Source: an uncultured Candidatus Bathyarchaeia archaeon (GTDB taxonomy: Archaea; Thermoproteota; Bathyarchaeia; 40CM-2-53-6). Taken from it: a stretch of DNA of 41,059 nt. The notes beneath the pieces are model-generated. The model worked only from the letters and a program-made list of their open reading frames with translations, did not search any database and was not told where the DNA came from. Shown here in pieces: positions 4,890 to 40,927 of the stretch (position 1 is its first letter; each line of letters begins with the position of its first letter). The position numbers and the translations under genes are program-made. The DNA lies in assembly GCA_964353625.1 (NCBI GenBank), contig CAYGWT010000078.1, positions 1 through 41,059 on the forward strand, read 5' to 3'.

Positions 4890-5141
4890 GATGCATTCGT
4901 ACGGTGCTTGGCACCTGAATAAAAGAAGATCGTCACGATCATGATTCTTGTCGAGTGATCAATCAATCCAATCATCTAATCTCACTCGTGTCCAACGTCG
5001 AACGAAGGTTCCACGAGCGGGGCATAGTTCCGTTTCTTCAGAGGACAATCGTGAAGTTGACAGTTTCGGTTCTGATACATGCTTGGCATTTGCACGGCAG
5101 TTACACAACACCTTATTCACGTGCGATCCATAGAAGTGATC

Positions 5142-5540
5142 ATGCCGATCAAGTACTTTCCCGCCTCCGACGTTAAAGAATTGACAGATCAATTGATTGA
5201 GGAACTGGGTTTCGTTCACATCCCCAAGGAAAGGGTCATCTGCATCAGGAGTGTCGGATCAAAATCCAGAGGGACCATCGCAAGAGTGCATTCTTTCCCG
5301 AAAGTCTGGCAGCGGGGGCTTAGCATGAAATCTCATTATGCAATTGAGGTTATCTCAGAACACTTCGATGACCTCTCGATGGCAGAACAAGAGAAGGTCA
5401 TCATCCACGAGTTGCTTCATGTACCGAAGAGTTTTGGTGGTGGATTTCGTCACCATAGAGACTGGGTCACCAGGCATAGGGTCGATCGGCTTCATGCTGC
5501 CCTAGTTGCGGATCGCCTCATAGACTCAAGCAACGGTTAA
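5142..5540 (+). CDS. Predicted zinc metalloprotease-like protein (HExxH)
   Basis: HELLH motif followed by VPKSFGGGFRHH, as in small archaeal SprT/Wss1-like putative metallopeptidases. The ATG at 5142 is in frame with the longer track ORF that starts at 5079. Confidence 0.5.
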   Translation: MPIKYFPASDVKELTDQLIEELGFVHIPKERVICIRSVGSKSRGTIARVHSFPKVWQRGLSMKSHYAIEVISEHFDDLSMAEQEKVIIHELLHVPKSFGGGFRHHRDWVTRHRVDRLHAALVADRLIDSSNG

Positions 5541-25456: not shown

Positions 25457-25674
25457 TCATTCCAATCACGATAAGGCAGCAGGGAAATGTTGAATTAGAA
25501 GTAATCTAATCTAGCGCAACATCCTGAAGGTAGGTGCCCAGTCGCTCCCCTTGGTACGTCCGTATTCGAGTAATGTAGGGTTAGAACCAAAGGGGTTCCT
25601 TACGTTTACCCTTATTAGGGCGTCCTTCTGTGCTGAGGAGGAGTTGCGTTAGGGTTCCCAATTTTCAGGGCCTA

Positions 25675-25998
25675 ATGAGCATTTGGATATTGGAGAGAGA
25701 CGATCATTTGAAGGATGAGGAGAATAAAATAGCTATTGACGTTTTCGAAAATCAGCTTGTTCCGAAACATGAGATTGTGCCCAGGCGCGAGGCTGAGGCA
25801 CTGCTCGAACGCCTGCACATCAAGGCGCATCAACTGCCTTACCTAAAAGCTGATGATCCAGCCGCGCGACAGATAGGTGCCAAGCCGTGGGATGTAGTAA
25901 AGATCACGCGTAAGAGTCCCACAGCCGGAGTGGTTGTAGTATACAGATACGTTATTGAGAGTTCAGCTGGAGGGGGAAAACCTGATCAGTCAAGTTGA
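25675..25998 (+). CDS. rpoH: DNA-directed RNA polymerase subunit H
   Basis: FENQLVPKHEIVPRREAEALLERLHIKAHQLPYLKADDPAARQIGAKPWDVVKITRKSPTAG is an Rpb5 C-domain. ATG 25675 is in frame with the track ORF that starts at GTG 25630. Confidence 0.88.
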   Translation: MSIWILERDDHLKDEENKIAIDVFENQLVPKHEIVPRREAEALLERLHIKAHQLPYLKADDPAARQIGAKPWDVVKITRKSPTAGVVVVYRYVIESSAGGGKPDQSS

Positions 25999-26005
25999 AC
26001 CGCAG

Positions 26006-29000
26006 ATGTGGGGACTGATCAAGGAATTCTTCCGCGAGAAGGGCCTTGTCAGGCAGCACATCGATTCATACAACGAATTTATTGAAACAGGATTGCAGGC
26101 GATCATAGACGAGGTCGGATCAATCCCAATAGAAATCGAAGAGTATCCGTTGAAGATCAAGCTCGGGAAGATTGAGATCGGCACACCTAGGGTAACAGAG
26201 GTTGATGGATCTGAAAGATCCATTTATCCTACGGAAGCTCGGATACGCAATCTCACATATGCCGCGCCATTGCACCTTGAAATGACGCCTGTAATCGGGG
26301 AACGTGAAGGCCAGACAGAGATCGTCTACATGGGGGACTTTCCCGTCATGCTCCGTTCGAAGATATGCCCTCTCTCGAGGCTGACTCTCGATGAGATGAC
26401 CAATATCGGCGAGGATTCCATTGATCCTGGCGGATACTTCATCGTCAATGGTGCTGAACGTGTGGTGGTTGCACTTGAGGATCTGGCAGCGAACAAGATC
26501 CTCATTGACACAGAGAAAACGGGAGTCAACCCCGTCTACAAGGCCAAGATTTTCTCTACAACCTTAGGTTTCCGGGCAAGAACTGAAGTCACCATGAAGT
26601 CCGACGGCGCGATCTTTATCATGGTCCCGGGGGTGCCAGCGGAGATTCCTTTAGTCGTGCTCATGAAAGCGCTTGGCATTCAGGAAGACCTGAAGATCGC
26701 CGAGCTGATCTCTGATGATGAGATCATCCAGAACCAATTGGAAGGTTCATTCGAGAAAGCGCAGGGCATCCTTTCGGTGAAGGATGCACTCCTATATGTT
26801 GGTAACCGTCTCGCGCCCGGACAGGTTGAGGATTACCGTGCCAAGAAGGCTGAAACGGTTGTCGATCGTAACTTTCTTCCACATATCGGGCGAACGCCAG
26901 CCGAAAGGAAAGAGAAAGCGTATTTCCTAGCCGAGATCACAACAAGGATTATTGAGCTGAAGCTTGGCAGGCGGGGCCCAGACGACAAGGATCACTACGC
27001 GAACAAGCGACTCAAGCTTGCAGGAACCTTGATGGGCGACCTCTTCAGGATCACATTTCGAAATCTTATCCGTGATTTGAAATATCAACTTGAGCGCATC
27101 ACGATCAGAAGACACCAGGAACTTTCGATTACGAACGCAATTAGGCCTGGCATAATCAGTGAACGAATACAGCACGCGGTTTCGACAGGCAACTGGGTTC
27201 GAGGAAGGGTTGGGGTAACACAACTTCTCGATCGAACGAACTATTCCGCGACATTAAGCCACCTGAGGCGGCTTCAATCTCCCTTGAGCAGAAGCCAACC
27301 CAACTTGGAGGCGCGCGATCTGCATGCGACGCATTGGGGCAGACTATGCCCGAATGAAACCCCTGAAGGATCGAATTGCGGTCTCGTGAAGAACTTAGCA
27401 TTATCCTCCATCCTGTCAACAGGGGTCGACTCAAGAGAGTTCGTGCTCAAGCTACGAATGATAGGGGTCGTACCAATTGGGGAAACGGAGAGCAAGTCAG
27501 CAACTCCGAGTGTCATCGTCATAGTTGACGGTCTAATTGCAGGCGTCACGCGGGCACCTAACGAGCTTGTGCAGGAACTAATACGTATGCGTCGCGCCGG
27601 CGAAATCAGCTCCGAAGTGAACGCCGCGTATTTCCCTCCAGAAAGAGAGAACGTGCGGGGATGCATCTACGTGAATTGTGACGGCGGCAGAGTGCGGAGA
27701 CCGCTAATCATAGTGGAAGATGGCGTTCCGAAACTGACGCGGGAGCATGTAGAAACCATTCAGAGACGCGAAATGCGTTGGGAGGAACTCGTTGAGAAAG
27801 GAGTCATAGAATACCTAGACTCCGACGAGGAGGAGAGTGCTCTCGTGGCGCTCGACCTTTCCAAGGTCTCGAAGGATACCACACATCTAGAGCTTGCTTC
27901 TTACACGATGCTGGGCATCTGCGCTTCAGTAATCCCGTATTCTGAGCACAACCAGTCTCCAAGGAACGCCTACGAGTCAGCCATGGCGAAACAAGCGCTT
28001 GGAGTTTCCTGCACCAACTTCTTCAACCGAACCGATTCTAGATCACATCTACTACACTACCCGCAGATGCCTCTCGTTAGGACGAAACCAATGGAAGTCA
28101 TTAACTACGATGACAGGCCTGCAGGTCAGAACTGTGTTTTGGCCGTACTTTCGTTCCAAGGCTACAATATGGAAGACGCCGTAGTCTTCAACCGATCATC
28201 TGTGGATCGTGGGTTTGGCCGTTCTACATTCTTCCGAATCTACGAAGGTGAATGTAGACAGTACCTCGGGGGGCTCCGCGACAAGTTCGAAATCCCAGAA
28301 GCAGGGACTAGAGGATACAGAGGTGACCGATACTATCGCTTTCTTGAGGAAGATGGAATTATCTCGGCTGAGGCGGACGTGAGCGGAAACACAGTTCTTG
28401 TAGGCAGAACAAGTCCCCCTAGATTCTTAGAAGAGTACCGTGAATTTGAAGTTAAAGGACCCACAAAACGTGACTCATCTGTAGGAATGCGCCCTTCAGA
28501 GGTCGGAGTAGTCGACACCATTTTCGTTACTGAATCAATCGAAGGCAGTAAGCTCGTGAAGGTGAAAGTCAGAGACACACGTGTTCCAGAACTTGGGGAC
28601 AAGTTCGCCTCAAGGCACGGGCAGAAAGGCGTCATCGGCCTCCTTGTTCCACAGCAAGACATGCCCTTCACCCAGGATGGCGTCGTCCCAGATGTCATCA
28701 TCAACCCTCATGCATTCCCATCCCGTATGACAATCGGACAATTCGTGGAATCCTTAGCTGGCAAAGTCGCTTCGTTGAGAGGGGAACCAGTTGACGGAAC
28801 TCCTTTCAGTAACGAACGCCCAGAGCAACTTCGCGATACCTTGCTGAAGCTTGGGTTCACTCAAAGCGGAAGCGAAGTTTTCTACAACGGCATCGACGGA
28901 AAGAAGTTCGTAGCCGATGTGTATGTTGGAGTCATATACTATCAGAAACTTCACCACATGGTTGCAGACAAGATGCACGCACGGGCACGCGGTCAAGTAC

Positions 29001-29332
29001 AGATGCTGACACGACAGCCCACCGAAGGAAGGGCCCGAGGAGGAGGCCTAAGATTCGGGGAGATGGAACGCGACTGTCTAATCGGGCACGGAGCGTCTGC
29101 GCTGCTTAGAGACAGACTCCTCGAAGAATCTGACAAGTACACCGTCATGGTTTGTGAAGTATGCGGCTTGCTCGGTTACCATGATATCAAACAGAACAAG
29201 TACGTGTGCCGTATCTGCGGCGAGCGGGCAGTAATCTCCCCCGTCGCACTTTCCTACGCCTTCAAACTACTCCTCCAAGAATTGATGGCGCTCGGTGTGG
29301 CTCCCAGACTTAACATTTCGGAGCGTGCATAA
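26006..29332 (+). CDS. rpoB: DNA-directed RNA polymerase subunit B (unsplit)
   Basis: About 1108 aa from ATG 26006, which is 7 nt after the rpoH stop. GLVRQHIDSYNEF N-terminus, FASRHGQKGV, GEMERDC and a C-terminal zinc ribbon CEVCG...CRICG. One continuous ORF. Confidence 0.95.
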   Translation: MWGLIKEFFREKGLVRQHIDSYNEFIETGLQAIIDEVGSIPIEIEEYPLKIKLGKIEIGTPRVTEVDGSERSIYPTEARIRNLTYAAPLHLEMTPVIGEREGQTEIVYMGDFPVMLRSKICPLSRLTLDEMTNIGEDSIDPGGYFIVNGAERVVVALEDLAANKILIDTEKTGVNPVYKAKIFSTTLGFRARTEVTMKSDGAIFIMVPGVPAEIPLVVLMKALGIQEDLKIAELISDDEIIQNQLEGSFEKAQGILSVKDALLYVGNRLAPGQVEDYRAKKAETVVDRNFLPHIGRTPAERKEKAYFLAEITTRIIELKLGRRGPDDKDHYANKRLKLAGTLMGDLFRITFRNLIRDLKYQLERITIRRHQELSITNAIRPGIISERIQHAVSTGNWVRGRVGVTQLLDRTNYSATLSHLRRLQSPLSRSQPNLEARDLHATHWGRLCPNETPEGSNCGLVKNLALSSILSTGVDSREFVLKLRMIGVVPIGETESKSATPSVIVIVDGLIAGVTRAPNELVQELIRMRRAGEISSEVNAAYFPPERENVRGCIYVNCDGGRVRRPLIIVEDGVPKLTREHVETIQRREMRWEELVEKGVIEYLDSDEEESALVALDLSKVSKDTTHLELASYTMLGICASVIPYSEHNQSPRNAYESAMAKQALGVSCTNFFNRTDSRSHLLHYPQMPLVRTKPMEVINYDDRPAGQNCVLAVLSFQGYNMEDAVVFNRSSVDRGFGRSTFFRIYEGECRQYLGGLRDKFEIPEAGTRGYRGDRYYRFLEEDGIISAEADVSGNTVLVGRTSPPRFLEEYREFEVKGPTKRDSSVGMRPSEVGVVDTIFVTESIEGSKLVKVKVRDTRVPELGDKFASRHGQKGVIGLLVPQQDMPFTQDGVVPDVIINPHAFPSRMTIGQFVESLAGKVASLRGEPVDGTPFSNERPEQLRDTLLKLGFTQSGSEVFYNGIDGKKFVADVYVGVIYYQKLHHMVADKMHARARGQVQMLTRQPTEGRARGGGLRFGEMERDCLIGHGASALLRDRLLEESDKYTVMVCEVCGLLGYHDIKQNKYVCRICGERAVISPVALSYAFKLLLQELMALGVAPRLNISERA

Positions 29333-29333
29333 G

Positions 29334-32300
29334 ATGGCGATGTTGGAAGAAGCAACTAAAATCATCGGCAGCATCAGGTTCTCACTTCTCTCCCCGAATG
29401 AAATACGTCGTCTGTCAGCAGTTGAAGTCCAGACAGCGGACACATACGACGAAGACGGCGTCCCCATAGTATCAGGTCTAATGGACGGAAGACTGGGAAC
29501 ACTCGAACCTAGGCAGAAGTGCAAGACCTGCGGAAACACGGCTGTAAGCTGCCCAGGTCACTCCGGGCACATAGAACTTGCGGAGCCTGCGGTCCATGTG
29601 GCCTTTGCCAAACTCATACACAAACTCCTGTCCATCACATGTCGCAACTGCGGCAGGATCCTCATGTCGAATGAAAAGATTGAGAACTACAACGCAAGGA
29701 TAGCGGAAGAAAAGATACGCCTCAACGAGGTGCCCACGACTTTCTTCGACGCTATTATGAAGGACGCGAAGAAAGTTCAAGAGTGTCCACACTGCGGAAC
29801 GCGACAACACACAATCGAACATCAGAAACCCACAACATTCATAGACGAGACCGGGGCCCGGCTCACGCCCAGCGCAATCAGAGAAATGCTTGAACGTATT
29901 CCTGATGATGATCTCCGCATTGTGGGTATGGATCCAACCGCTGCAAGACCTGAATGGACGGTCCTGCAGGTCCTGCCCGTCCCGCCAGTTACGGTGCGAC
30001 CATCTATTACACTCGAGTCAGGCATTCGATCAGAAGACGATCTGACTCACAAACTCGTTGACATAATTCGAATCAACCAGAAGCTGCATGAAGCACTCGA
30101 ATCCGGCGTTCCAGTTAACATCATTCAAGAACTACATGACCTGCTTCAGTATCATGTTACTACGTACTTTGATAATGAGGTTTCCGGCCTACCGCCTGCT
30201 CGTCACCGATCAGGAAGAGCGTTGAGAACGATCTGTCAACGATTAAAAGGCAAGGAAGGCAGGTTCCGAGGCAACCTGTCTGGAAAGCGAGTTGACTTCT
30301 CAGCTAGGACTGTAATTTCTCCTGACCCTAACATAGACATCAGCGAGGTAGGCGTTCCAGTTGACATAGCAGCACGACTAACTATTCCAGAACGTGTTAC
30401 ACAATGGAACATCGAAGAGATGAAACGGCTCATCAGAAACGGCCCTGACCAGTACCCAGGCGCTCTCTATATCGTGCGCCCGGACCAAAGGCGAGTCAGA
30501 CTAGAGTTCGTTACCGAACGAGATAGTCTCGCAGACGCAATCGAATCAGGTTTCGTCGTCGAACGCCACATCAGAGATGGGGATATTGTGCTCTTCAATA
30601 GACAACCCTCACTTCACAGAATGTCAATCATGGCCCACACAGTTAGAGTACTTCCATACAAGACCTTCAGACTGAACCCATGCGTCTGCCCACCATACAA
30701 CGCGGACTTTGACGGCGATGAGATGAACCTGCATGTACCGCAGGGTGAGGAAGCGAGAACCGAAGCAAGGCTTCTCATGCAAGTACAAGATCAGATACTC
30801 TCTCCTCGCTACGGAGGACCAATCATCGGTGCTAAGACGGATCTTATCAGCGCAGCCTATCTGCTCACCCGCAAATCCACAGTCCTCACAAAAGATGAGG
30901 TTTGTAGGCTCCTTGCAGCTGCCGGGTACACGGGCGAAGTTCCCGAGCCAGCGATCAAGCGTCCTGTCGAACTTTGGACCGGGAAACAGATCTTCAGCCT
31001 CTTCCTGCCGAAGGGTTTCAGCTTCACCACCAGATCCAGCATGGTGACAAAGGACGACAAAGAACACGTCATAATACGTAACGGCATACTTGAAGAAGGA
31101 GTCATCGACAAGAACTCGATCGGCGCCGAACGCTCGGAGACGCTCTTCCACCGAATTGTGAAGGATCAAGGATCTGAGACCGGGCGTCAGTTTCTCAATC
31201 ACCTCGCGAAGTTGCTAGACCGTTTCGTTTTGATGAAAGGCTTCTCATACTCAATCAAGGAACTTGACGTACTTCCGAGTGTCAAGGAAAAGATTGACAA
31301 GGGCATAAGGAAAGCCGAAGAGCGTGTCTACACACTTATCGAGAGCTACAACCAAGGAACTCTTGAACGGCTGCCGGGCCAATCCCTTGCGGAATCACTC
31401 GAGATTCGAATAATGGACGAACTCTCCAAAGCTCGTGACGGTGCTGGCGCGTATGCCGACGCGAACTTGGACGAAAGAAACAGCGGCGTAATCATGACTA
31501 GAACAGGAGCAAGAGGTTCGTCGCTAAACATTGCACAGATGATAGCATGCGTGGGTCAGCAATCAATTCGTGGTCAAAGAATCCGCAGAGGATACAGAGA
31601 CAGAGTGCTGTCATTCTTCCGACCTGGAGACGCAGGTCCTGAAGCAAAAGGGTTCGTTTACGCCTCGTATCGTGACGGTCTCAACCCGATCGAGTTCTTC
31701 TTCCATGCAATGGGTGGACGTGAAGGACTAGTGGACACTGCGGTCAGGACCCAACAAAGCGGATACATGCAAAGAAGACTGATCAATGCACTCGAACATC
31801 TCAGAGTGGAATACGACTCAACCGTGAGGGACTCGCGAGGAGACATCATTCAATTCAGATACGGGGAAGACGGTGTGGACACTGCGAAAAGCGATCATGG
31901 CAAGGCAGTAAACTCTGAACGCCTAATCGAACGTGTACGGCTCACCGCGGAAAAAGGCGCGAAGGCCACCAACAAGTACGTCGAAACTAAGGTTCGAGAA
32001 GTGACCGACCGACTTTCTCCCCTCCTAGCAGATGAGTTGAAGCGAGATCTCCTGAAGGCTAAAATGTCACGGCGCGGCGTCGACGAAGTCGTTGGCCAAG
32101 CCGTCGAAAACTACGGCAGATCGCTCATCGAACCCGGTGAAGCTGCAGGAATTGTATCAGCTCAATCCATTGGAGAGCCTGGCACGCAGATGACACTGAG
32201 AACCTTCCACTTTGCAGGTGTGAGGGAGCAGAACGTCACCCTTGGCCTTCCTAGACTGATCGAGATTGTCGACGCAAGGAAGATCCCGTCGACGCCGACG

Positions 32301-33119
32301 ATGACGGTGTTCCTTGACGAGAAACATAGGACGAGCAAGGAGAAGGCCGAGGACGTCGCCACCCTCCTCACGCACACTACACTCGCAGACATCGCCTCTA
32401 GTATCGAGTCAGACATAACTAGGATGAGGATCGTGGTTAAACTTGACACTGCAGCTATGCGCGAGAAGTCCGTCACGATGAAAGACATGAAATCAGCGAT
32501 CCAAGTACCTCGAGGAGAAACGAAGATCGAAAAAGACGAAGTAGAAATTACCGCTCAGGACATGGACATTCCACAGTTCAGGCGTCTCGAGTCCCGTGTC
32601 GCCGGAATGCACGTGAAAGGAATCCCCGCGGTGAAGCGAGCTCTTGTCATGGAGGAAAACCACGAGTGGATCATCAGAACGGAGGGATCGAACCTCGAAC
32701 TTGCACTCACGACGCCGGGTATCGATCCGACCAGAACAGTATCCAACAACATGCACGAGGTGGCGGCCGTGCTCGGAATCGAAGCAGCGCGCAACGTAAT
32801 AGTCAAAGAGGCGAAAGCCGTCCTCGAAGAGCAAGGTCTTGACGTCGACATAAGACATGTGATGCTCGTCGCAGATGCGATGACCGCGTCGGGCGAAGTC
32901 CTTCAAGTAGGTAGGCATGGTGTAAGCGGCGAGAAATCGAGCACACTTGCGAAAGCAGCCTTTGAGATCACGATCCCAACGATCGTCGACGCGGCCGTTC
33001 GCGGAACAAAGGATCACCTGCGTGGAGTCGCGGAAAACGTGATAGTCGGACAACAGGTGCCAATGGGTACAGGCCTCATCGAGGTTTTCATGGCAATGTC
33101 CGAGAGGAGGGAGAAATAG
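29334..33119 (+). CDS. rpoA: DNA-directed RNA polymerase subunit A, with A' and A'' portions in one ORF
   Basis: ATG 29334 lies 1 nt after the rpoB stop. N-terminal zinc motifs and catalytic NADFDGDEMN belong to A'. The ORF then continues without a stop through ...FRYGEDGVD... into the A'' hallmark LIEPGEAAGIVSAQSIGEPGTQMTLRTFHFAGV (near 32120). Confidence 0.92.
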   Translation: MAMLEEATKIIGSIRFSLLSPNEIRRLSAVEVQTADTYDEDGVPIVSGLMDGRLGTLEPRQKCKTCGNTAVSCPGHSGHIELAEPAVHVAFAKLIHKLLSITCRNCGRILMSNEKIENYNARIAEEKIRLNEVPTTFFDAIMKDAKKVQECPHCGTRQHTIEHQKPTTFIDETGARLTPSAIREMLERIPDDDLRIVGMDPTAARPEWTVLQVLPVPPVTVRPSITLESGIRSEDDLTHKLVDIIRINQKLHEALESGVPVNIIQELHDLLQYHVTTYFDNEVSGLPPARHRSGRALRTICQRLKGKEGRFRGNLSGKRVDFSARTVISPDPNIDISEVGVPVDIAARLTIPERVTQWNIEEMKRLIRNGPDQYPGALYIVRPDQRRVRLEFVTERDSLADAIESGFVVERHIRDGDIVLFNRQPSLHRMSIMAHTVRVLPYKTFRLNPCVCPPYNADFDGDEMNLHVPQGEEARTEARLLMQVQDQILSPRYGGPIIGAKTDLISAAYLLTRKSTVLTKDEVCRLLAAAGYTGEVPEPAIKRPVELWTGKQIFSLFLPKGFSFTTRSSMVTKDDKEHVIIRNGILEEGVIDKNSIGAERSETLFHRIVKDQGSETGRQFLNHLAKLLDRFVLMKGFSYSIKELDVLPSVKEKIDKGIRKAEERVYTLIESYNQGTLERLPGQSLAESLEIRIMDELSKARDGAGAYADANLDERNSGVIMTRTGARGSSLNIAQMIACVGQQSIRGQRIRRGYRDRVLSFFRPGDAGPEAKGFVYASYRDGLNPIEFFFHAMGGREGLVDTAVRTQQSGYMQRRLINALEHLRVEYDSTVRDSRGDIIQFRYGEDGVDTAKSDHGKAVNSERLIERVRLTAEKGAKATNKYVETKVREVTDRLSPLLADELKRDLLKAKMSRRGVDEVVGQAVENYGRSLIEPGEAAGIVSAQSIGEPGTQMTLRTFHFAGVREQNVTLGLPRLIEIVDARKIPSTPTMTVFLDEKHRTSKEKAEDVATLLTHTTLADIASSIESDITRMRIVVKLDTAAMREKSVTMKDMKSAIQVPRGETKIEKDEVEITAQDMDIPQFRRLESRVAGMHVKGIPAVKRALVMEENHEWIIRTEGSNLELALTTPGIDPTRTVSNNMHEVAAVLGIEAARNVIVKEAKAVLEEQGLDVDIRHVMLVADAMTASGEVLQVGRHGVSGEKSSTLAKAAFEITIPTIVDAAVRGTKDHLRGVAENVIVGQQVPMGTGLIEVFMAMSERREK

Positions 33120-37184: not shown

Positions 37185-39449
37185 CTACGAAAGCGAGTAT
37201 ATTGCCCTCTTCTCTATCGTGCGCTTCTTGCCCTCAGGCCACAACGCGACAGGTATGTAGGTAGATGATGACCGTCCATATTGTCCAACATTATCAGATG
37301 CGCACGAACTGCAACTTGTAACCAATCCTGCGATAACTCGATTACAATTCCTGCAAAACGAGTAAGCTCTGGAATAAGTCATGAACCGGATGCCGCTGGC
37401 AGCTGCTTCGTGCGAAACCGATAAGAGTGCTTCCGTGGTTGCCTTCGAGTCCACAGAAATCACGGCCAAATGGCCTCCCGGAGTCAGAGTCTGAAGCATC
37501 CCTTCGATAGCTAGCCTTTCACTGAGAGGAACCTTTGATGTCAAAGGAACACCTGGCATATCTGTGTAGAACGGGGAGTTCCTGCCACCTTGGGCAGACA
37601 CCGTGCTCTTGCCGTAATGTTCAACATCGAGTTCGGCCAGTCTTGAGGCTGCTTCATCTCCGGGTCTTTCCGACAGTACCACGCGCATCCCTAGGTTCTC
37701 TGATGCGGCCTCGGTTTGCTTTCGCAACTCTTGGAGGATCTTCTCTCCGAAAACTAGTGAGTCTTTCTTCAACTCGCTACCGGTATGGGCAAGGCAAGCC
37801 TCGTTCAGTCCCAAGATCGCCACTGCATAGGTAGCTACTTTCTCACGGAAGTACGGGGTGCCTTGACCTGATCCGAAGAGCAGCGGGAGTGCAGTTTGTT
37901 TTAGTCTATCAACCATGAACTTCCGCTTGATCTTGAAGGCCTCTAATGCCAAAGTAAGTGAATCTGTCATTGATTTGAAGAATCTATCATCGTCTCTTCG
38001 TGCTTCATAAGCAAGTCTAGGCAAGTTGAGAAAGACCGTTGTCATACAACCTGTCCTATAGCAGTCGGACTCCCATTGCTTGCCCCAATCGTCCGAAAGT
38101 CTCAGACCCGTGGCTGTGTAGCAGTCGGGTGAGCCGTCTCGAAGAAACGCAATGTACGGTAGCGCCCGAGATGCCGCTAGTTCGTGAGTTTTGAGAACGC
38201 GAGATCGAGTTTCATCTTTTCTCTCGGCCGAGTCCCGAATCTTGAAGATCAACCTGGGGCTCGCCAACAGGTTGGTCGATGTTACTCGTGAAGTCGCATC
38301 AAGTAGATCATCAAGAACCACCCTCGTCTCCTCGTGGTAGTCACCGTAAACTCCCATCGTTCTACCTCCTGGCCCGATGGCCTCAACACTCTCTAGGAAC
38401 TCAGGCACTCCATATTCGAGCCCAAGAGAAAGTCCGGGCTGAGGGGACCCCAGTGGCAGGTCGCGTTCTATGGATGAAAGAAAGAGCGCAAGCGATTCCC
38501 TGACCGAGTCCTCAGAGGTATTCTTAACGTAGGGTGCTAGGAAGACATTGAATAGGTCAAAACTTTGTTCGCCTGATATCTCTGTAATTCCGAGACGGTA
38601 GACGCTCTGGATCAATGCCAAAGCTGCGTTGAGGCTTTGTGGTGGTTTCAATCCAACGAGCCCGTTTTTCAGGAAATATCGGAGATCATGTTGGATTTCG
38701 CTCGGCTTTAGGGGCCAGCTCTCAAGGTCGGATATGTGGATTTGGCCTGAGATGTGCGCGTCTGCGATCTCACGTGGCAAGCACTCCAGCAGGACATACT
38801 CTCCCAAGACAGAAGCTCCTGCGGTCCTCTGAACGTAGTCAGTTGTCAACCCGAGTTCTCCGGTCGAATGGAGAAGCTGAGTGACATCGTATACCGGCAT
38901 TCCAACACGCGTCAGCTTATGCCTGTATTCTTCGAGTTTCTTTTCGATGAGAATCGCATTAACAAACTCGCGGATCAAGGCCGAAGTCAGGTACGAAGTT
39001 CTAAGCTTGATTAGCCGGTCTTCTGCTTCTGCCGCTATTTCGTCCGCAAGTTCCTGGGGAACGCCTGCTTCAACAACCAGTGACTTCGCTATCTTGCTTC
39101 TGTGGAAGTCCTCGATCGCTAGCCGCGAGGTTCTAACGAATAATTTGCCGCGTTTCACACTGACGTATTCTTCTAGGTCTCTCGCGAAATGTATTACCAT
39201 ATCTCCCAGTTCAGTTATCTCGTACTTCTTTGCGCGCTTATCCGAACTGATTAGTCCGGCTTCAGTCAGACTTCTTAGGTGGTATACGAATTTTCCAGCG
39301 TCACGGACAGGATCCAGCTTCAGAGCCGACATGATCTCGGTATATGGCAACGCGCCTTTCGTGGAGAGAAGTCGGAGTACTTGCATGCGAAGCGGAGCGG
39401 ATGCAGCGTCGAATATGGCCGCTCCAAGTTTCTCGAAGGAACGCAGCAT
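37185..39449 (-). CDS. Winged-helix / ATP-cone / class III (anaerobic) ribonucleotide reductase-like protein
   Basis: N-terminal ArsR-like wHTH (LRMQVLRLLSTKGALPYTEIMSAL...YHLRSLTEAGLI). ATP-cone-like segment (LFVRTSRLAIEDFHRSKIAKSL...). NrdD-type motifs AHISGQIHISDL, GEQSFDLFNVFLAPYV and TTVFLNLPRLA. C-terminal CxxC...CxxC ribbon. The expected RxxGY glycyl-radical motif reads RSSSTY. Confidence 0.7.
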   Translation of the reverse strand: MLRSFEKLGAAIFDAASAPLRMQVLRLLSTKGALPYTEIMSALKLDPVRDAGKFVYHLRSLTEAGLISSDKRAKKYEITELGDMVIHFARDLEEYVSVKRGKLFVRTSRLAIEDFHRSKIAKSLVVEAGVPQELADEIAAEAEDRLIKLRTSYLTSALIREFVNAILIEKKLEEYRHKLTRVGMPVYDVTQLLHSTGELGLTTDYVQRTAGASVLGEYVLLECLPREIADAHISGQIHISDLESWPLKPSEIQHDLRYFLKNGLVGLKPPQSLNAALALIQSVYRLGITEISGEQSFDLFNVFLAPYVKNTSEDSVRESLALFLSSIERDLPLGSPQPGLSLGLEYGVPEFLESVEAIGPGGRTMGVYGDYHEETRVVLDDLLDATSRVTSTNLLASPRLIFKIRDSAERKDETRSRVLKTHELAASRALPYIAFLRDGSPDCYTATGLRLSDDWGKQWESDCYRTGCMTTVFLNLPRLAYEARRDDDRFFKSMTDSLTLALEAFKIKRKFMVDRLKQTALPLLFGSGQGTPYFREKVATYAVAILGLNEACLAHTGSELKKDSLVFGEKILQELRKQTEAASENLGMRVVLSERPGDEAASRLAELDVEHYGKSTVSAQGGRNSPFYTDMPGVPLTSKVPLSERLAIEGMLQTLTPGGHLAVISVDSKATTEALLSVSHEAAASGIRFMTYSRAYSFCRNCNRVIAGLVTSCSSCASDNVGQYGRSSSTYIPVALWPEGKKRTIEKRAIYSLS

Positions 39450-39640: not shown

Positions 39641-40558
39641 ATGAATGAAAGACTAGTTTCCACTGCTCGCCCTCAATCAGCTGAAGGAGTACAGTACCAC
39701 ATTTCAGCGAAGCGAGGACAGGTAGGTGACTATGTCTTTCTGCCTGGCGATCCGGATCGCGTGCCGAAGATAGCTAAGTTCTGGGACTCAGCTCACGAAG
39801 TATCTTCTCACAGAGAATACCGAATATGGTCTGGAATGGTCAGCGGAACGATGGTGTCGGCCTGTTCTACGGGCATTGGTTGTCCAGCCACGGCCATTGC
39901 AATCGAAGAGCTGGGCAGAATCGGCGCGAAGACATTCATTCGAGTTGGTTCCTGCGGATCACTGCTGCCGGACCTGGAATGTGGAGACCTAGGAATATTC
40001 ACTGCCGCCGTTCGTCTTGATGGTACCGGCGAGCAATATGTCACCGCTGCATATCCCGTCGCTGCAAGCCACGAAGTGGTCCTCGCACTTATCGAGGCTG
40101 CCGAGAAACTGGGCAAGAAGTACAGAGCAGGGTATACCGCGTCAACCGACAGCTTCTATGCGGGCCAAGGTCGGCCCGGCATTGAAGATTATCTGCCTAC
40201 AGATGCTGAGACGCTCATTGAGAGGCTTCGAAGACAGCGTGTGATCACAATGGCAAAGGAAGCTTCTGTGATCTTCACCTTGGCGGGCATCTATGGATTC
40301 CGCAGCGGCTGCGTACTCGCGGTGTACGTGAACAGAACCACGAACAAGTTTGAGGCCAAAGGGGAAGAGGCCGCATGCAAAGTTGCAGTGGAAGCGGTTC
40401 GAATCCTAATCAAATGGGACCTGGATCGTCAAAGAGCCGGGAAAAGATACCTGGTCACCAAGCCTCAGCTACTGATATGTGCCCCAGTTACATGGTGGGG
40501 CGGCGTTTTCTCTTGGACTCTCGATCAGGCCATGACATGGCTGACAGGAGCGCCGTAG
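39641..40558 (+). CDS. Nucleoside phosphorylase, uridine phosphorylase-like (PNP_UDP_1 family)
   Basis: FLPGDPDRVPKIA, SSHREYRIWSG, STGIGCPATAIAIEELGRIGAKTFIRVGSCGS. Confidence 0.78.
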   Translation: MNERLVSTARPQSAEGVQYHISAKRGQVGDYVFLPGDPDRVPKIAKFWDSAHEVSSHREYRIWSGMVSGTMVSACSTGIGCPATAIAIEELGRIGAKTFIRVGSCGSLLPDLECGDLGIFTAAVRLDGTGEQYVTAAYPVAASHEVVLALIEAAEKLGKKYRAGYTASTDSFYAGQGRPGIEDYLPTDAETLIERLRRQRVITMAKEASVIFTLAGIYGFRSGCVLAVYVNRTTNKFEAKGEEAACKVAVEAVRILIKWDLDRQRAGKRYLVTKPQLLICAPVTWWGGVFSWTLDQAMTWLTGAP

Positions 40559-40594
40559 GGCCTAGTCTCGGCAAGCGCCTCGACGAGCAAAGAG

Positions 40595-40601
40595 CTTAAA
40601 G
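40595..40601 (+). promoter_or_regulatory. TATA-like box upstream of tRNA-Glu
   Basis: CTTAAAG is centred about 30 nt upstream of the tRNA 5' end at 40628. Confidence 0.4.
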
Positions 40602-40627
40602 ACTCATCTGCTCGCTTTCGCCGTGGT

Positions 40628-40795
40628 GCTCCGGTGGTGTAGCCCGGTTAGCGCCGAGGCCGAGAGCATAGCGGCCTTATCCACTGGTGAGCCAGTGGAG
40701 GCCACTCGAGCCGTTGATCGCGGGAGATCGTTCGCAAGCGATCCGCGAATTCGAAAACGAGGCCTCTCTCGTCGCAAGTCCCGCCCGGAGCACCA
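40628..40795 (+). tRNA. tRNA-Glu(UUC) with four intervening sequences and an encoded CCA
   Basis: Acceptor GCTCCGG/CCGGAGC, A73 and CCA. Removing 40651-40664, 40679-40705, 40725-40749 and 40756-40778 gives D-arm GTGT-AGCCCGGTTAA-GCAT, anticodon arm GCGGC-CTTTCGA-GCCGT, variable loop TGATC and T-arm GCGGG-TTCGAAT-CCCGC. Confidence 0.8.
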
Positions 40796-40927
40796 ATACA
40801 AGAATCGGTAGCCGTCTTAGTCTCGAGCCTCAGTTCTTTGAGGCAACGGCTTCAACGTCGAGGGCCTCACGACACAAACCTTTTGGTCACTTGAATCCAT
40901 ATGGGAAAGAGACGAGTGGTCCGGCTC

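Follow-up and report, generated by a model that had tools for sequence, protein, structure and literature searches.

A Bathyarchaeia tRNA-Glu(UUC) gene predicted to carry four short bulge-helix-bulge introns

Can a tRNA gene be divided into five pieces, one of them 6 nt long, and still encode a canonical tRNA? The question is raised by a 168-nt segment near the end of the 41,059-nucleotide stretch of DNA from an uncultured Candidatus Bathyarchaeia archaeon that was analysed here (the window). A first-pass annotation, made from the letters of this stretch, had read the segment as a tRNA-Glu gene with a perfect acceptor stem and an encoded CCA that folds into a cloverleaf only after four insertions are removed. 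Our analysis bears this out. The 79-nt sequence spliced in silico is called tRNA-Glu(ttc) by ARAGORN, while the unspliced gene is missed by both ARAGORN and Rfam (gathering thresholds and E ≤ 10, in the window and in the region), where the weak Rfam matches are chance miRNA or snoRNA hits only. We consider it very probable that the locus is a functional Bathyarchaeia (TACK/Thermoproteota) tRNA-Glu(UUC) gene with four short bulge-helix-bulge (BHB) introns cut by the splicing endonuclease. The gene and its predicted exons, in standard tRNA numbering, are as follows.

40628–40795, forward strand: whole tRNA-Glu(UUC) gene, 168 nt, with five exons, four introns and an encoded CCA
40628–40650, forward strand: exon 1, 23 nt; acceptor 5′ strand, U8, G9, D-stem 5′ strand and D-loop to position 20b
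40665–40678, forward strand: exon 2, 14 nt; A21, D-stem 3′ strand, position 26, anticodon-stem 5′ strand, C32, U33 and U34
40706–40724, forward strand: exon 3, 19 nt; U35, C36, G37, A38, anticodon-stem 3′ strand, variable loop and T-stem 5′ strand
40750–40755, forward strand: exon 4, 6 nt (UUCGAA); T-loop positions 54–59
40779–40795, forward strand: exon 5, 17 nt; U60, T-stem 3′ strand, acceptor 3′ strand, A73 and CCA

The acceptor stem, GCTCCGG/CCGGAGC, has 7 bp and is followed by discriminator A and the encoded CCA. The spliced product has a D-stem GUGU/GCAU, an anticodon loop CUUUCGA and a T-loop UUCGAAU, the two loops being those first proposed, and it contains U8, A14, G18, G19, A21, U33, T54–A58, C61 and A73, all of which are conserved tRNA nucleotides. 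All coordinates and sequences originally given for the gene proved correct. Compared to intronless orthologues, which score 60–67 bits on Rfam tRNA, the spliced tRNA is identical at 70–71 of 76 positions (92–93%).

The gene is intergenic: the PNP-family gene before it ends at 40558, and a short ORF begins after it at 40901. The window as a whole is an archaeal chromosomal housekeeping region (GC ~51%) encoding RpoH, RpoB, RpoA, PCNA, both primase subunits, GINS and ribosomal proteins. Scanning it for an acceptor stem with CCA gave no further tRNA gene, only false positives in coding sequence. Several genes in it have features of their own. RNA polymerase subunit A is one unsplit ORF of 1274 aa (29295–33119, forward strand) with Rpb1 domains 1–5, not A′ plus A″, and it follows RpoH and an unsplit RpoB (25630–25998 and 25955–29332, both forward strand). 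Thaumarchaeota-related lineages characteristically have an unsplit rpoA, which presumably fits the Bathyarchaeia assignment. NrdD (37185–39449, reverse strand) has an N-terminal winged-helix/HTH region (DUF7347, HTH_20) before the ATP-cone, that is, a DNA-binding-type domain fused to an anaerobic ribonucleotide reductase. An ORF with a 'putative phage metallopeptidase' domain (5079–5540, forward strand; PF18894, E=3.6e-22) sits amid the housekeeping genes, between thioredoxin and diphthamide synthase.

Orthologues and intron subsets

Orthologues were collected in two scans. The genome scan, for which the query was the gene's initial 20 nt, covered a single genome for each GTDB species and gave at least 119 loci; in the metagenome scan the query was exon 3 extended by two bases into intron c, and 94 contigs matched. 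Among the genome matches listed, most are ordinary 74–76-nt tRNA-Glu genes of Archaeoglobi, Nitrososphaeria, Bathyarchaeia and others, and 51 of 112 scored loci carry at least one insertion, a count among the matches listed that does not represent population frequencies. The gap-tolerant aligner merged introns around short exons, and such loci (L028, L090, L081 and similar) were counted by hand. Chance matches were set aside: a deltaproteobacterial locus (L082) with no tRNA there, and about 20 of the 94 metagenome matches (15 distinct sequences) inside GC-rich bacterial coding sequence.

A MAG labelled Candidatus Bathyarchaeia (L051) shares all four insertions and their positions, with identical exons and different hairpin sequences, and a complete four-intron tRNA-Glu(UUC) gene is present in 58 of the 94 metagenome contigs. 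A 1.69-Mb contig of the clade, Ga0315314_1000001, has the gene at ~517–518 kb. Apart from the chance matches, the remaining contigs carry c+d or b+c+d, and several genes end at the contig edge. The window, L051 and the 58 contigs make up 60 loci with 50 distinct sequences, which form two subgroups by gene length (164–173 nt and 174–180 nt). Synteny is kept, with NrdD, the PNP-like gene and then the tRNA, and the flanks are 72–96% identical to the window.

Other relatives, nearly all of them MAGs labelled Bathyarchaeia or Bathyarchaeota, carry subsets of the introns. These are a+b (L035, labelled Nitrososphaeria, L038 and L095), c+d (L081, labelled only 'bacterium'), b+c+d (L090), b and d together with an intron at ~39/40 (L015, L023, L028, L073, L074, L093 and L118), and a with other introns (L034, L068 and L085). 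Every predicted exon–exon junction is uninterrupted in some relative, among genes that have a+b, c+d, b+c+d or none. Intron a is absent from L010, L031 and L042, where the predicted junction GGTTAAGCAT is found, whereas L034, L068, L085 and L095 have an intron of different sequence there. The intron b junction GGCCTT^TCGAGCC (^ marks the splice site here and below) is uninterrupted in L155, L159, L179 and L189, and intron c is absent from L035, L038 and L095, in which the T-arm is continuous. This distribution shows that the four predicted introns are independent of one another.

The seven genes with the ~39/40 intron come from Bathyarchaeota soil and sediment MAGs and have a second three-intron tRNA-Glu(UUC) architecture (34/35, ~39/40 and 59/60), in which 5–6 exon nucleotides (UCGAG/C) lie between the first two introns as another micro-exon. 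In Thaumarchaeota/Nitrososphaerota MAGs, two tRNA-Glu(CUC) genes (L087, gene from 5617, and L105, minus strand) combine D-loop insertions of 33–43 nt at ~17/17a with an anticodon-loop insertion of 44–47 nt, an intron set that differs from that of the Bathyarchaeia genes. Archaeal-type tRNA-Glu genes were also found in two bacterial bins, a Thermotogaceae MAG (L021) and the 'bacterium' MAG (L081), one of them with introns c and d; binning contamination is the most likely source.

Geometry of the splice junctions

Each strand of a BHB motif, as Marck and Grosjean reportedly laid out in 2003, runs 5′ to 3′ through an outer helix, a 4-nt strand of the central helix H, a 3-nt bulge and an outer helix again, and is said to be cut after the second bulge nucleotide. 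In the strict hBHBh′ form, the outer helices h and h′ each have at least 2 bp (PMC7714728). The cut rule was applied without alignment to the 50 distinct genes. In the window and 50 distinct orthologues, each splice site falls 2 nt 3′ of one strand of a 4-bp helix. The canonical 37/38 intron of an Archaeoglobus gene (L006), read by hand, follows the same cut geometry. The predicted introns and their helices are as follows.

40651–40664, forward strand: intron a, 14 nt, at 20b/21; H 40645–40648 (CGGT) with 40659–40662 (GCCG); bulges UA^G and AG^A
40679–40705, forward strand: intron b, 27 nt, at 34/35, within the anticodon; H 40673–40676 (GGCC) with 40700–40703 (GGCC)
40680–40687 with 40692–40699, forward strand: hairpin of intron b, 8 bp; bulges UU^A and AC^U
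40725–40749, forward strand: intron c, 25 nt, at 53/54; H 40719–40722 (CGCG) with 40744–40747 (CGCG)
40726–40732 with 40737–40743, forward strand: hairpin of intron c, 7 bp; bulges GG^A and AA^U
40756–40778, forward strand: intron d, 23 nt, at 59/60; H 40750–40753 (UUCG) with 40773–40776 (CGCA)
40757–40761 with 40768–40772, forward strand: hairpin of intron d, 5 bp; bulges AA^A and AG^U; outer helix formed by the T-stem

All four introns have a central helix flanked by two bulges, which are 3 nt long throughout, and cuts placed symmetrically after the second bulge nucleotide are the only ones predicted to give a canonical tRNA. The first-pass annotation had claimed a 4-bp helix beside a 3-nt bulge at every junction. 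The geometry recurs in 50 of 50 orthologues, and the claim needs amending for intron d, whose H is mismatched.

Intron b is located at 34/35 with a GGCC/GGCC central helix and an 8-bp hairpin, as first described. Its H is fully paired in 50 of 50 genes (GGUC in 2), the second bulge is AC^U or AA^U, and the hairpin has 5–8 bp across orthologues, with two pairs altered on both sides. Sliding the intron by −1, which would give the anticodon CUC in the window, was rejected; it yields nonsense in orthologues with an AA^T bulge and violates the symmetric cut rule. In intron c, the central helix is CGCG/CGCG and fully paired in all 50 genes, the bulges GGA and AAT are invariant, and the hairpin has 5–9 bp with one exception, three of its pairs being altered on both sides. 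The helix and bulges of intron c are thus those initially reported; its position is the boundary of T-stem and T-loop, not strictly within the loop as had been thought.

For intron d, the inner hairpin and the use of the T-stem as outer helix hold, and H in the window carries one mismatch, U55·C. Three of the four pairs of this helix form in 28 of 50 genes (the window and 27 others) and all four in the other 22, with bulges AA^N and AN^U. The inner helix mostly has 5–11 bp, and in 10 of 50 genes a simple count of the stem is interrupted at its outermost pair. Exon and intron covary here: A57 stands opposite U in 15 of 15 genes, and G57 stands opposite C, or opposite U in three.

The strict hBHBh′ form is not reached by introns a, b and c, in which the exon-side h is absent; they are therefore relaxed (HBh′-type) BHB motifs, which favors a broad-specificity endonuclease and is no argument against their being introns. 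The h of intron d is the T-stem, available only while the intron c helix is unformed. By its predicted pairing, intron d alone comes near strict hBHBh′, and just when the T-stem has formed. In the subgroup-1 alignment, 96.8% of the cells at paired positions are standard pairs, compared to 34–46% when the partners are slid by 1–3 columns, and the conformation with T-stem and intron d has 94.1% of alignment cells paired. Six hairpin pairs are changed on both sides in this alignment; the covariation is modest because the sequences are closely related.

Intron a remains the weakest case, as it was judged at the outset. Its inner helix has 0–2 bp (1–2 bp in the window) around a 5–7-nt loop, an exon-side outer helix is lacking, and the minimum free energy (MFE) fold pairs the region differently. 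On these grounds, introns b, c and d alone might be spliced and the 14-nt segment kept as an enlarged D-loop, or else not be an endonuclease substrate at all. We find this improbable in the extreme. In 50 of 50 genes, the bulges UA^G and AG^A flank a conserved CGGT/GCCG helix with 4 of 4 pairs, including 3 with ACCG instead of GCCG and a change from U·G to U-A; if retained in the tRNA, this helix would sequester G18 and G19. We know of no 25-nt D-loop in elongator tRNAs. Exact removal of 14 nt recreates the D-loop of the intronless L010, L031 and L042, and other lineages have a 12–16-nt insert of different sequence in the same place, ending GCCGAN, or none. The symmetric cut rule, together with the D-loop AGCCCGGTTAA of those three intronless genes, also makes the 14-nt solution a better one than the 15-nt solution, both of which had been considered for intron a.

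Exon constraint and order of intron removal

Exons and introns evolve very differently. Among 32 distinct subgroup-1 genes, 1 of 79 exon columns and 57 of 94 intron columns are variable, and any two of these genes are on average 99.9% identical in their exons and 79.6% identical in their introns. Exon 1 has 1 variable column of 23 (32 group-1 orthologues). Exons 2 and 5, both free in either search pattern, are invariant in 50 of 50 sequences, and exon 4 reads TTCGAA in 35 and TTCAAA in 15. The sole exon changes among the 50 sequences are one U20a→C, one U→C in the 3′ strand of the anticodon stem, and G57/A57 in the T-loop. The queries fixed the first 20 nt of exon 1 in the genome scan and exon 3 in the metagenome scan; part of the exon invariance is therefore ascertainment, and the invariance of exon 3 among the metagenome sequences is uninformative. 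Exons 2, 4 and 5 (37 columns) were not set by the queries and are invariant in subgroup 1. Purifying selection thus acts on the exons and not on the introns, and the introns are variably present among orthologues.

Constraint extends upstream of the gene, to the following element.

40587–40603, forward strand: candidate promoter, GCAAAGAGCTTAAAGAC, a purine-rich BRE (GCAAAGA) followed by a TATA box (GCTTAAAGAC)

The candidate BRE/TATA element is centered ~30 nt upstream of G1, the mature 5′ end, a spacing that we take to fit an archaeal promoter whose transcript begins with a leader only a few nucleotides long. In 27 orthologous loci, drawn from both subgroups, the motif G(C/G)AAA(G/T/A)A(G/A)CTTAAAG keeps this distance from the gene, and the sequence farther upstream diverges. 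From this pattern we infer that the element acts as promoter. Separately, an 18-nt spacer between TATA box and tRNA 5′ end (40610–40627, forward strand; GCTCGCTTTCGCCGTGGT) is conserved nearly to exon level in subgroup 1 although it is expected to be just the initiation region and leader; the same is seen in L120, L165, L167, L172 and others.

That ARAGORN and Rfam fail to see the locus could suggest a decaying or silent pseudogene, the work being done by another intact tRNA-Glu(UUC) gene. We give this even less credence than the retention of intron a. The exons are invariant while introns and flanks diverge (flanks to ~72% identity), a contrast that a neutral locus would not produce and that contradicts decay. 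In addition, the helices are maintained through compensatory changes, the promoter motif is conserved across orthologous loci, and the acceptor stem and CCA are perfect. The idea that the insertions are assembly or chimera artefacts has a negligible chance of being right, refuted as it is by the recurrence of the four-intron structure in 59 independent assemblies from many samples and projects, far beyond chance.

In both the MFE and the centroid structure of the 168-nt precursor, introns b and c form their BHB motifs unforced (z-score −2.8). Helix H of intron d and the intron a BHB are missing from the MFE folds, and RNAalifold on the unspliced alignment gave no useful consensus, with mature and precursor helices mixed. 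The helix H of intron c consists of nucleotides 48–51 and overlaps the 5′ strand of the T-stem (49–53). When intron c is removed in silico, the T-stem GCGGG/CCCGC and the intron d hairpin appear in the fold. The T-stem serves intron d as its outer helix and cannot form in the conformation that presents intron c; we therefore infer that intron c would leave before intron d. The H cores of c and d, which do not overlap, could in principle coexist and do not by themselves dictate this order. Dependent introns that are removed successively are known in two- and three-intron genes, as described in the tRNAscan-SE 2.0 paper (PMC8450103).

These observations suggest the following pathway. Transcription would start from the BRE/TATA promoter ~30 nt upstream. 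The 3′ part of each intron pairs with four upstream-exon nucleotides located 2 nt before the junction, giving a 4-bp helix between two 3-nt bulges, as sequence, conservation and covariation show. The splicing endonuclease would then cut both strands after the second bulge nucleotide, and an RtcB-type ligase would join the exons, cleavage and ligation being taken from the established archaeal pathway. By phylogeny, the enzyme is expected to be the broad-specificity (αβ)2 EndA of TACK archaea, a form that is widespread in that group and accepts relaxed motifs (PMC5829648, PMC7714728). Pfam scans of 39 ORFs in the 41-kb window revealed no EndA gene. With intron c out and exons 3 and 4 ligated first, the T-stem could form and present intron d; this order would keep the 6-nt exon 4 covalently attached and never free. 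The product would be a 76-nt tRNA with its encoded CCA.

A stronger proposal, which we advance tentatively and consider somewhat doubtful, is that quadruple splicing is obligatorily ordered throughout the clade and that all four introns are kept by selection rather than tolerance. If so, the precursor must refold once c has been excised and exons 3 and 4 ligated, as the c helix and the T-stem are mutually exclusive, and ordered splicing would be what saves the 6-nt exon from loss. Retention of four introns despite protein-coding flanks at ~70% identity would then reflect selection for the introns, possibly for protection of the tRNA gene from integrating elements or for a folding or modification checkpoint.

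Relation to known multi-intron tRNA genes

tRNA genes that combine several non-canonical BHB introns are a familiar finding in the Thaumarchaeota, among other lineages. Such genes have also been described in Thermoproteales (Pyrobaculum, Thermofilum, Caldivirga) and Caldiarchaeum subterraneum (Sugahara et al. 2007/2008; PMC3293823; PMC8450103). The genes of Thermoproteales and Caldiarchaeum share with the present one short BHB or relaxed-BHB introns at non-canonical positions in the D-arm, anticodon arm and T-arm, their occurrence in TACK archaea and their being missed by ordinary tRNA finders. They differ in having at most three introns, compared to four here in Bathyarchaeia, clade-wide, with a 6-nt exon between the T-arm introns. 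In the nuclear tRNA genes of Cyanidioschyzon merolae, which likewise contain multiple ectopic BHB-type introns, including in the D-loop and T-loop, RT-PCR showed that the order of removal follows BHB stability; these genes belong to a eukaryotic nucleus, have at most three introns and are in some cases permuted (PMC3728597).

Three introns are the stated maximum per tRNA gene in reviews to 2021 and in the tRNAscan-SE 2.0 paper (PMC4033280, PMC3293823, PMC8450103), in line with the limit quoted in the first-pass annotation. That limit is exceeded in Supplementary Data 4 of Valentin-Alvarado et al. 2024 (PMC11291895), which lists four-intron tRNA genes of Asgard archaea. Freyarchaeia Arg-TCT and Ile2-CAT have four predicted and four observed introns there, and Freyarchaeia Leu-GAG and Atabeyarchaeia Trp-CCA have three predicted and four observed; the main text reports multiple introns in over half of the genes and nothing more specific (PMC11291895). 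The Asgard genes, predicted by tRNAscan-SE and R2DT, match the present gene in having four introns in one archaeal tRNA gene and differ in phylum and isoacceptors, the tRNA-Glu genes listed there having at most two introns (PMC11291895). The four-intron Asgard genes appear in the supplement only, and the accessible text gives no junction structures or conservation analysis for them (PMC11291895). Full-text literature searches returned no four-intron archaeal tRNA beyond the Asgard supplement and nothing on Bathyarchaeia tRNA introns.

Since four-intron Asgard genes are already listed, the present gene ties the record and does not break it, and its mechanism is a known one. It had been called unusual for its four introns and for the anticodon split at 34/35. 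Four introns do match the highest number listed; an intron at 34/35 is common in Bathyarchaeia tRNA-Glu genes, and the literature searches found no published list of intron positions by which its rarity could be gauged. On sequence grounds, the four-intron extreme is extended from Asgard archaea to the TACK class Bathyarchaeia. What sets this case apart is its clade-wide conservation, the 6-nt exon, the intron within the anticodon, the predicted conformational dependence of introns c and d, and its being missed by ARAGORN and Rfam.

Surveys of MAGs with such tools would score tRNA-Glu(UUC) as missing and so misjudge genome completeness or decoding capacity. The 50 distinct sequences and the relatives with intron subsets provide a comparative series for intron gain and loss, of a kind that the accessible part of the Asgard report does not present. 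With its 6-nt exon, its intron at 34/35 and the overlap of the c helix with the T-stem, the gene may serve as a compact natural substrate for EndA and RtcB, on which substrate breadth, cut order and exon retention could be approached.
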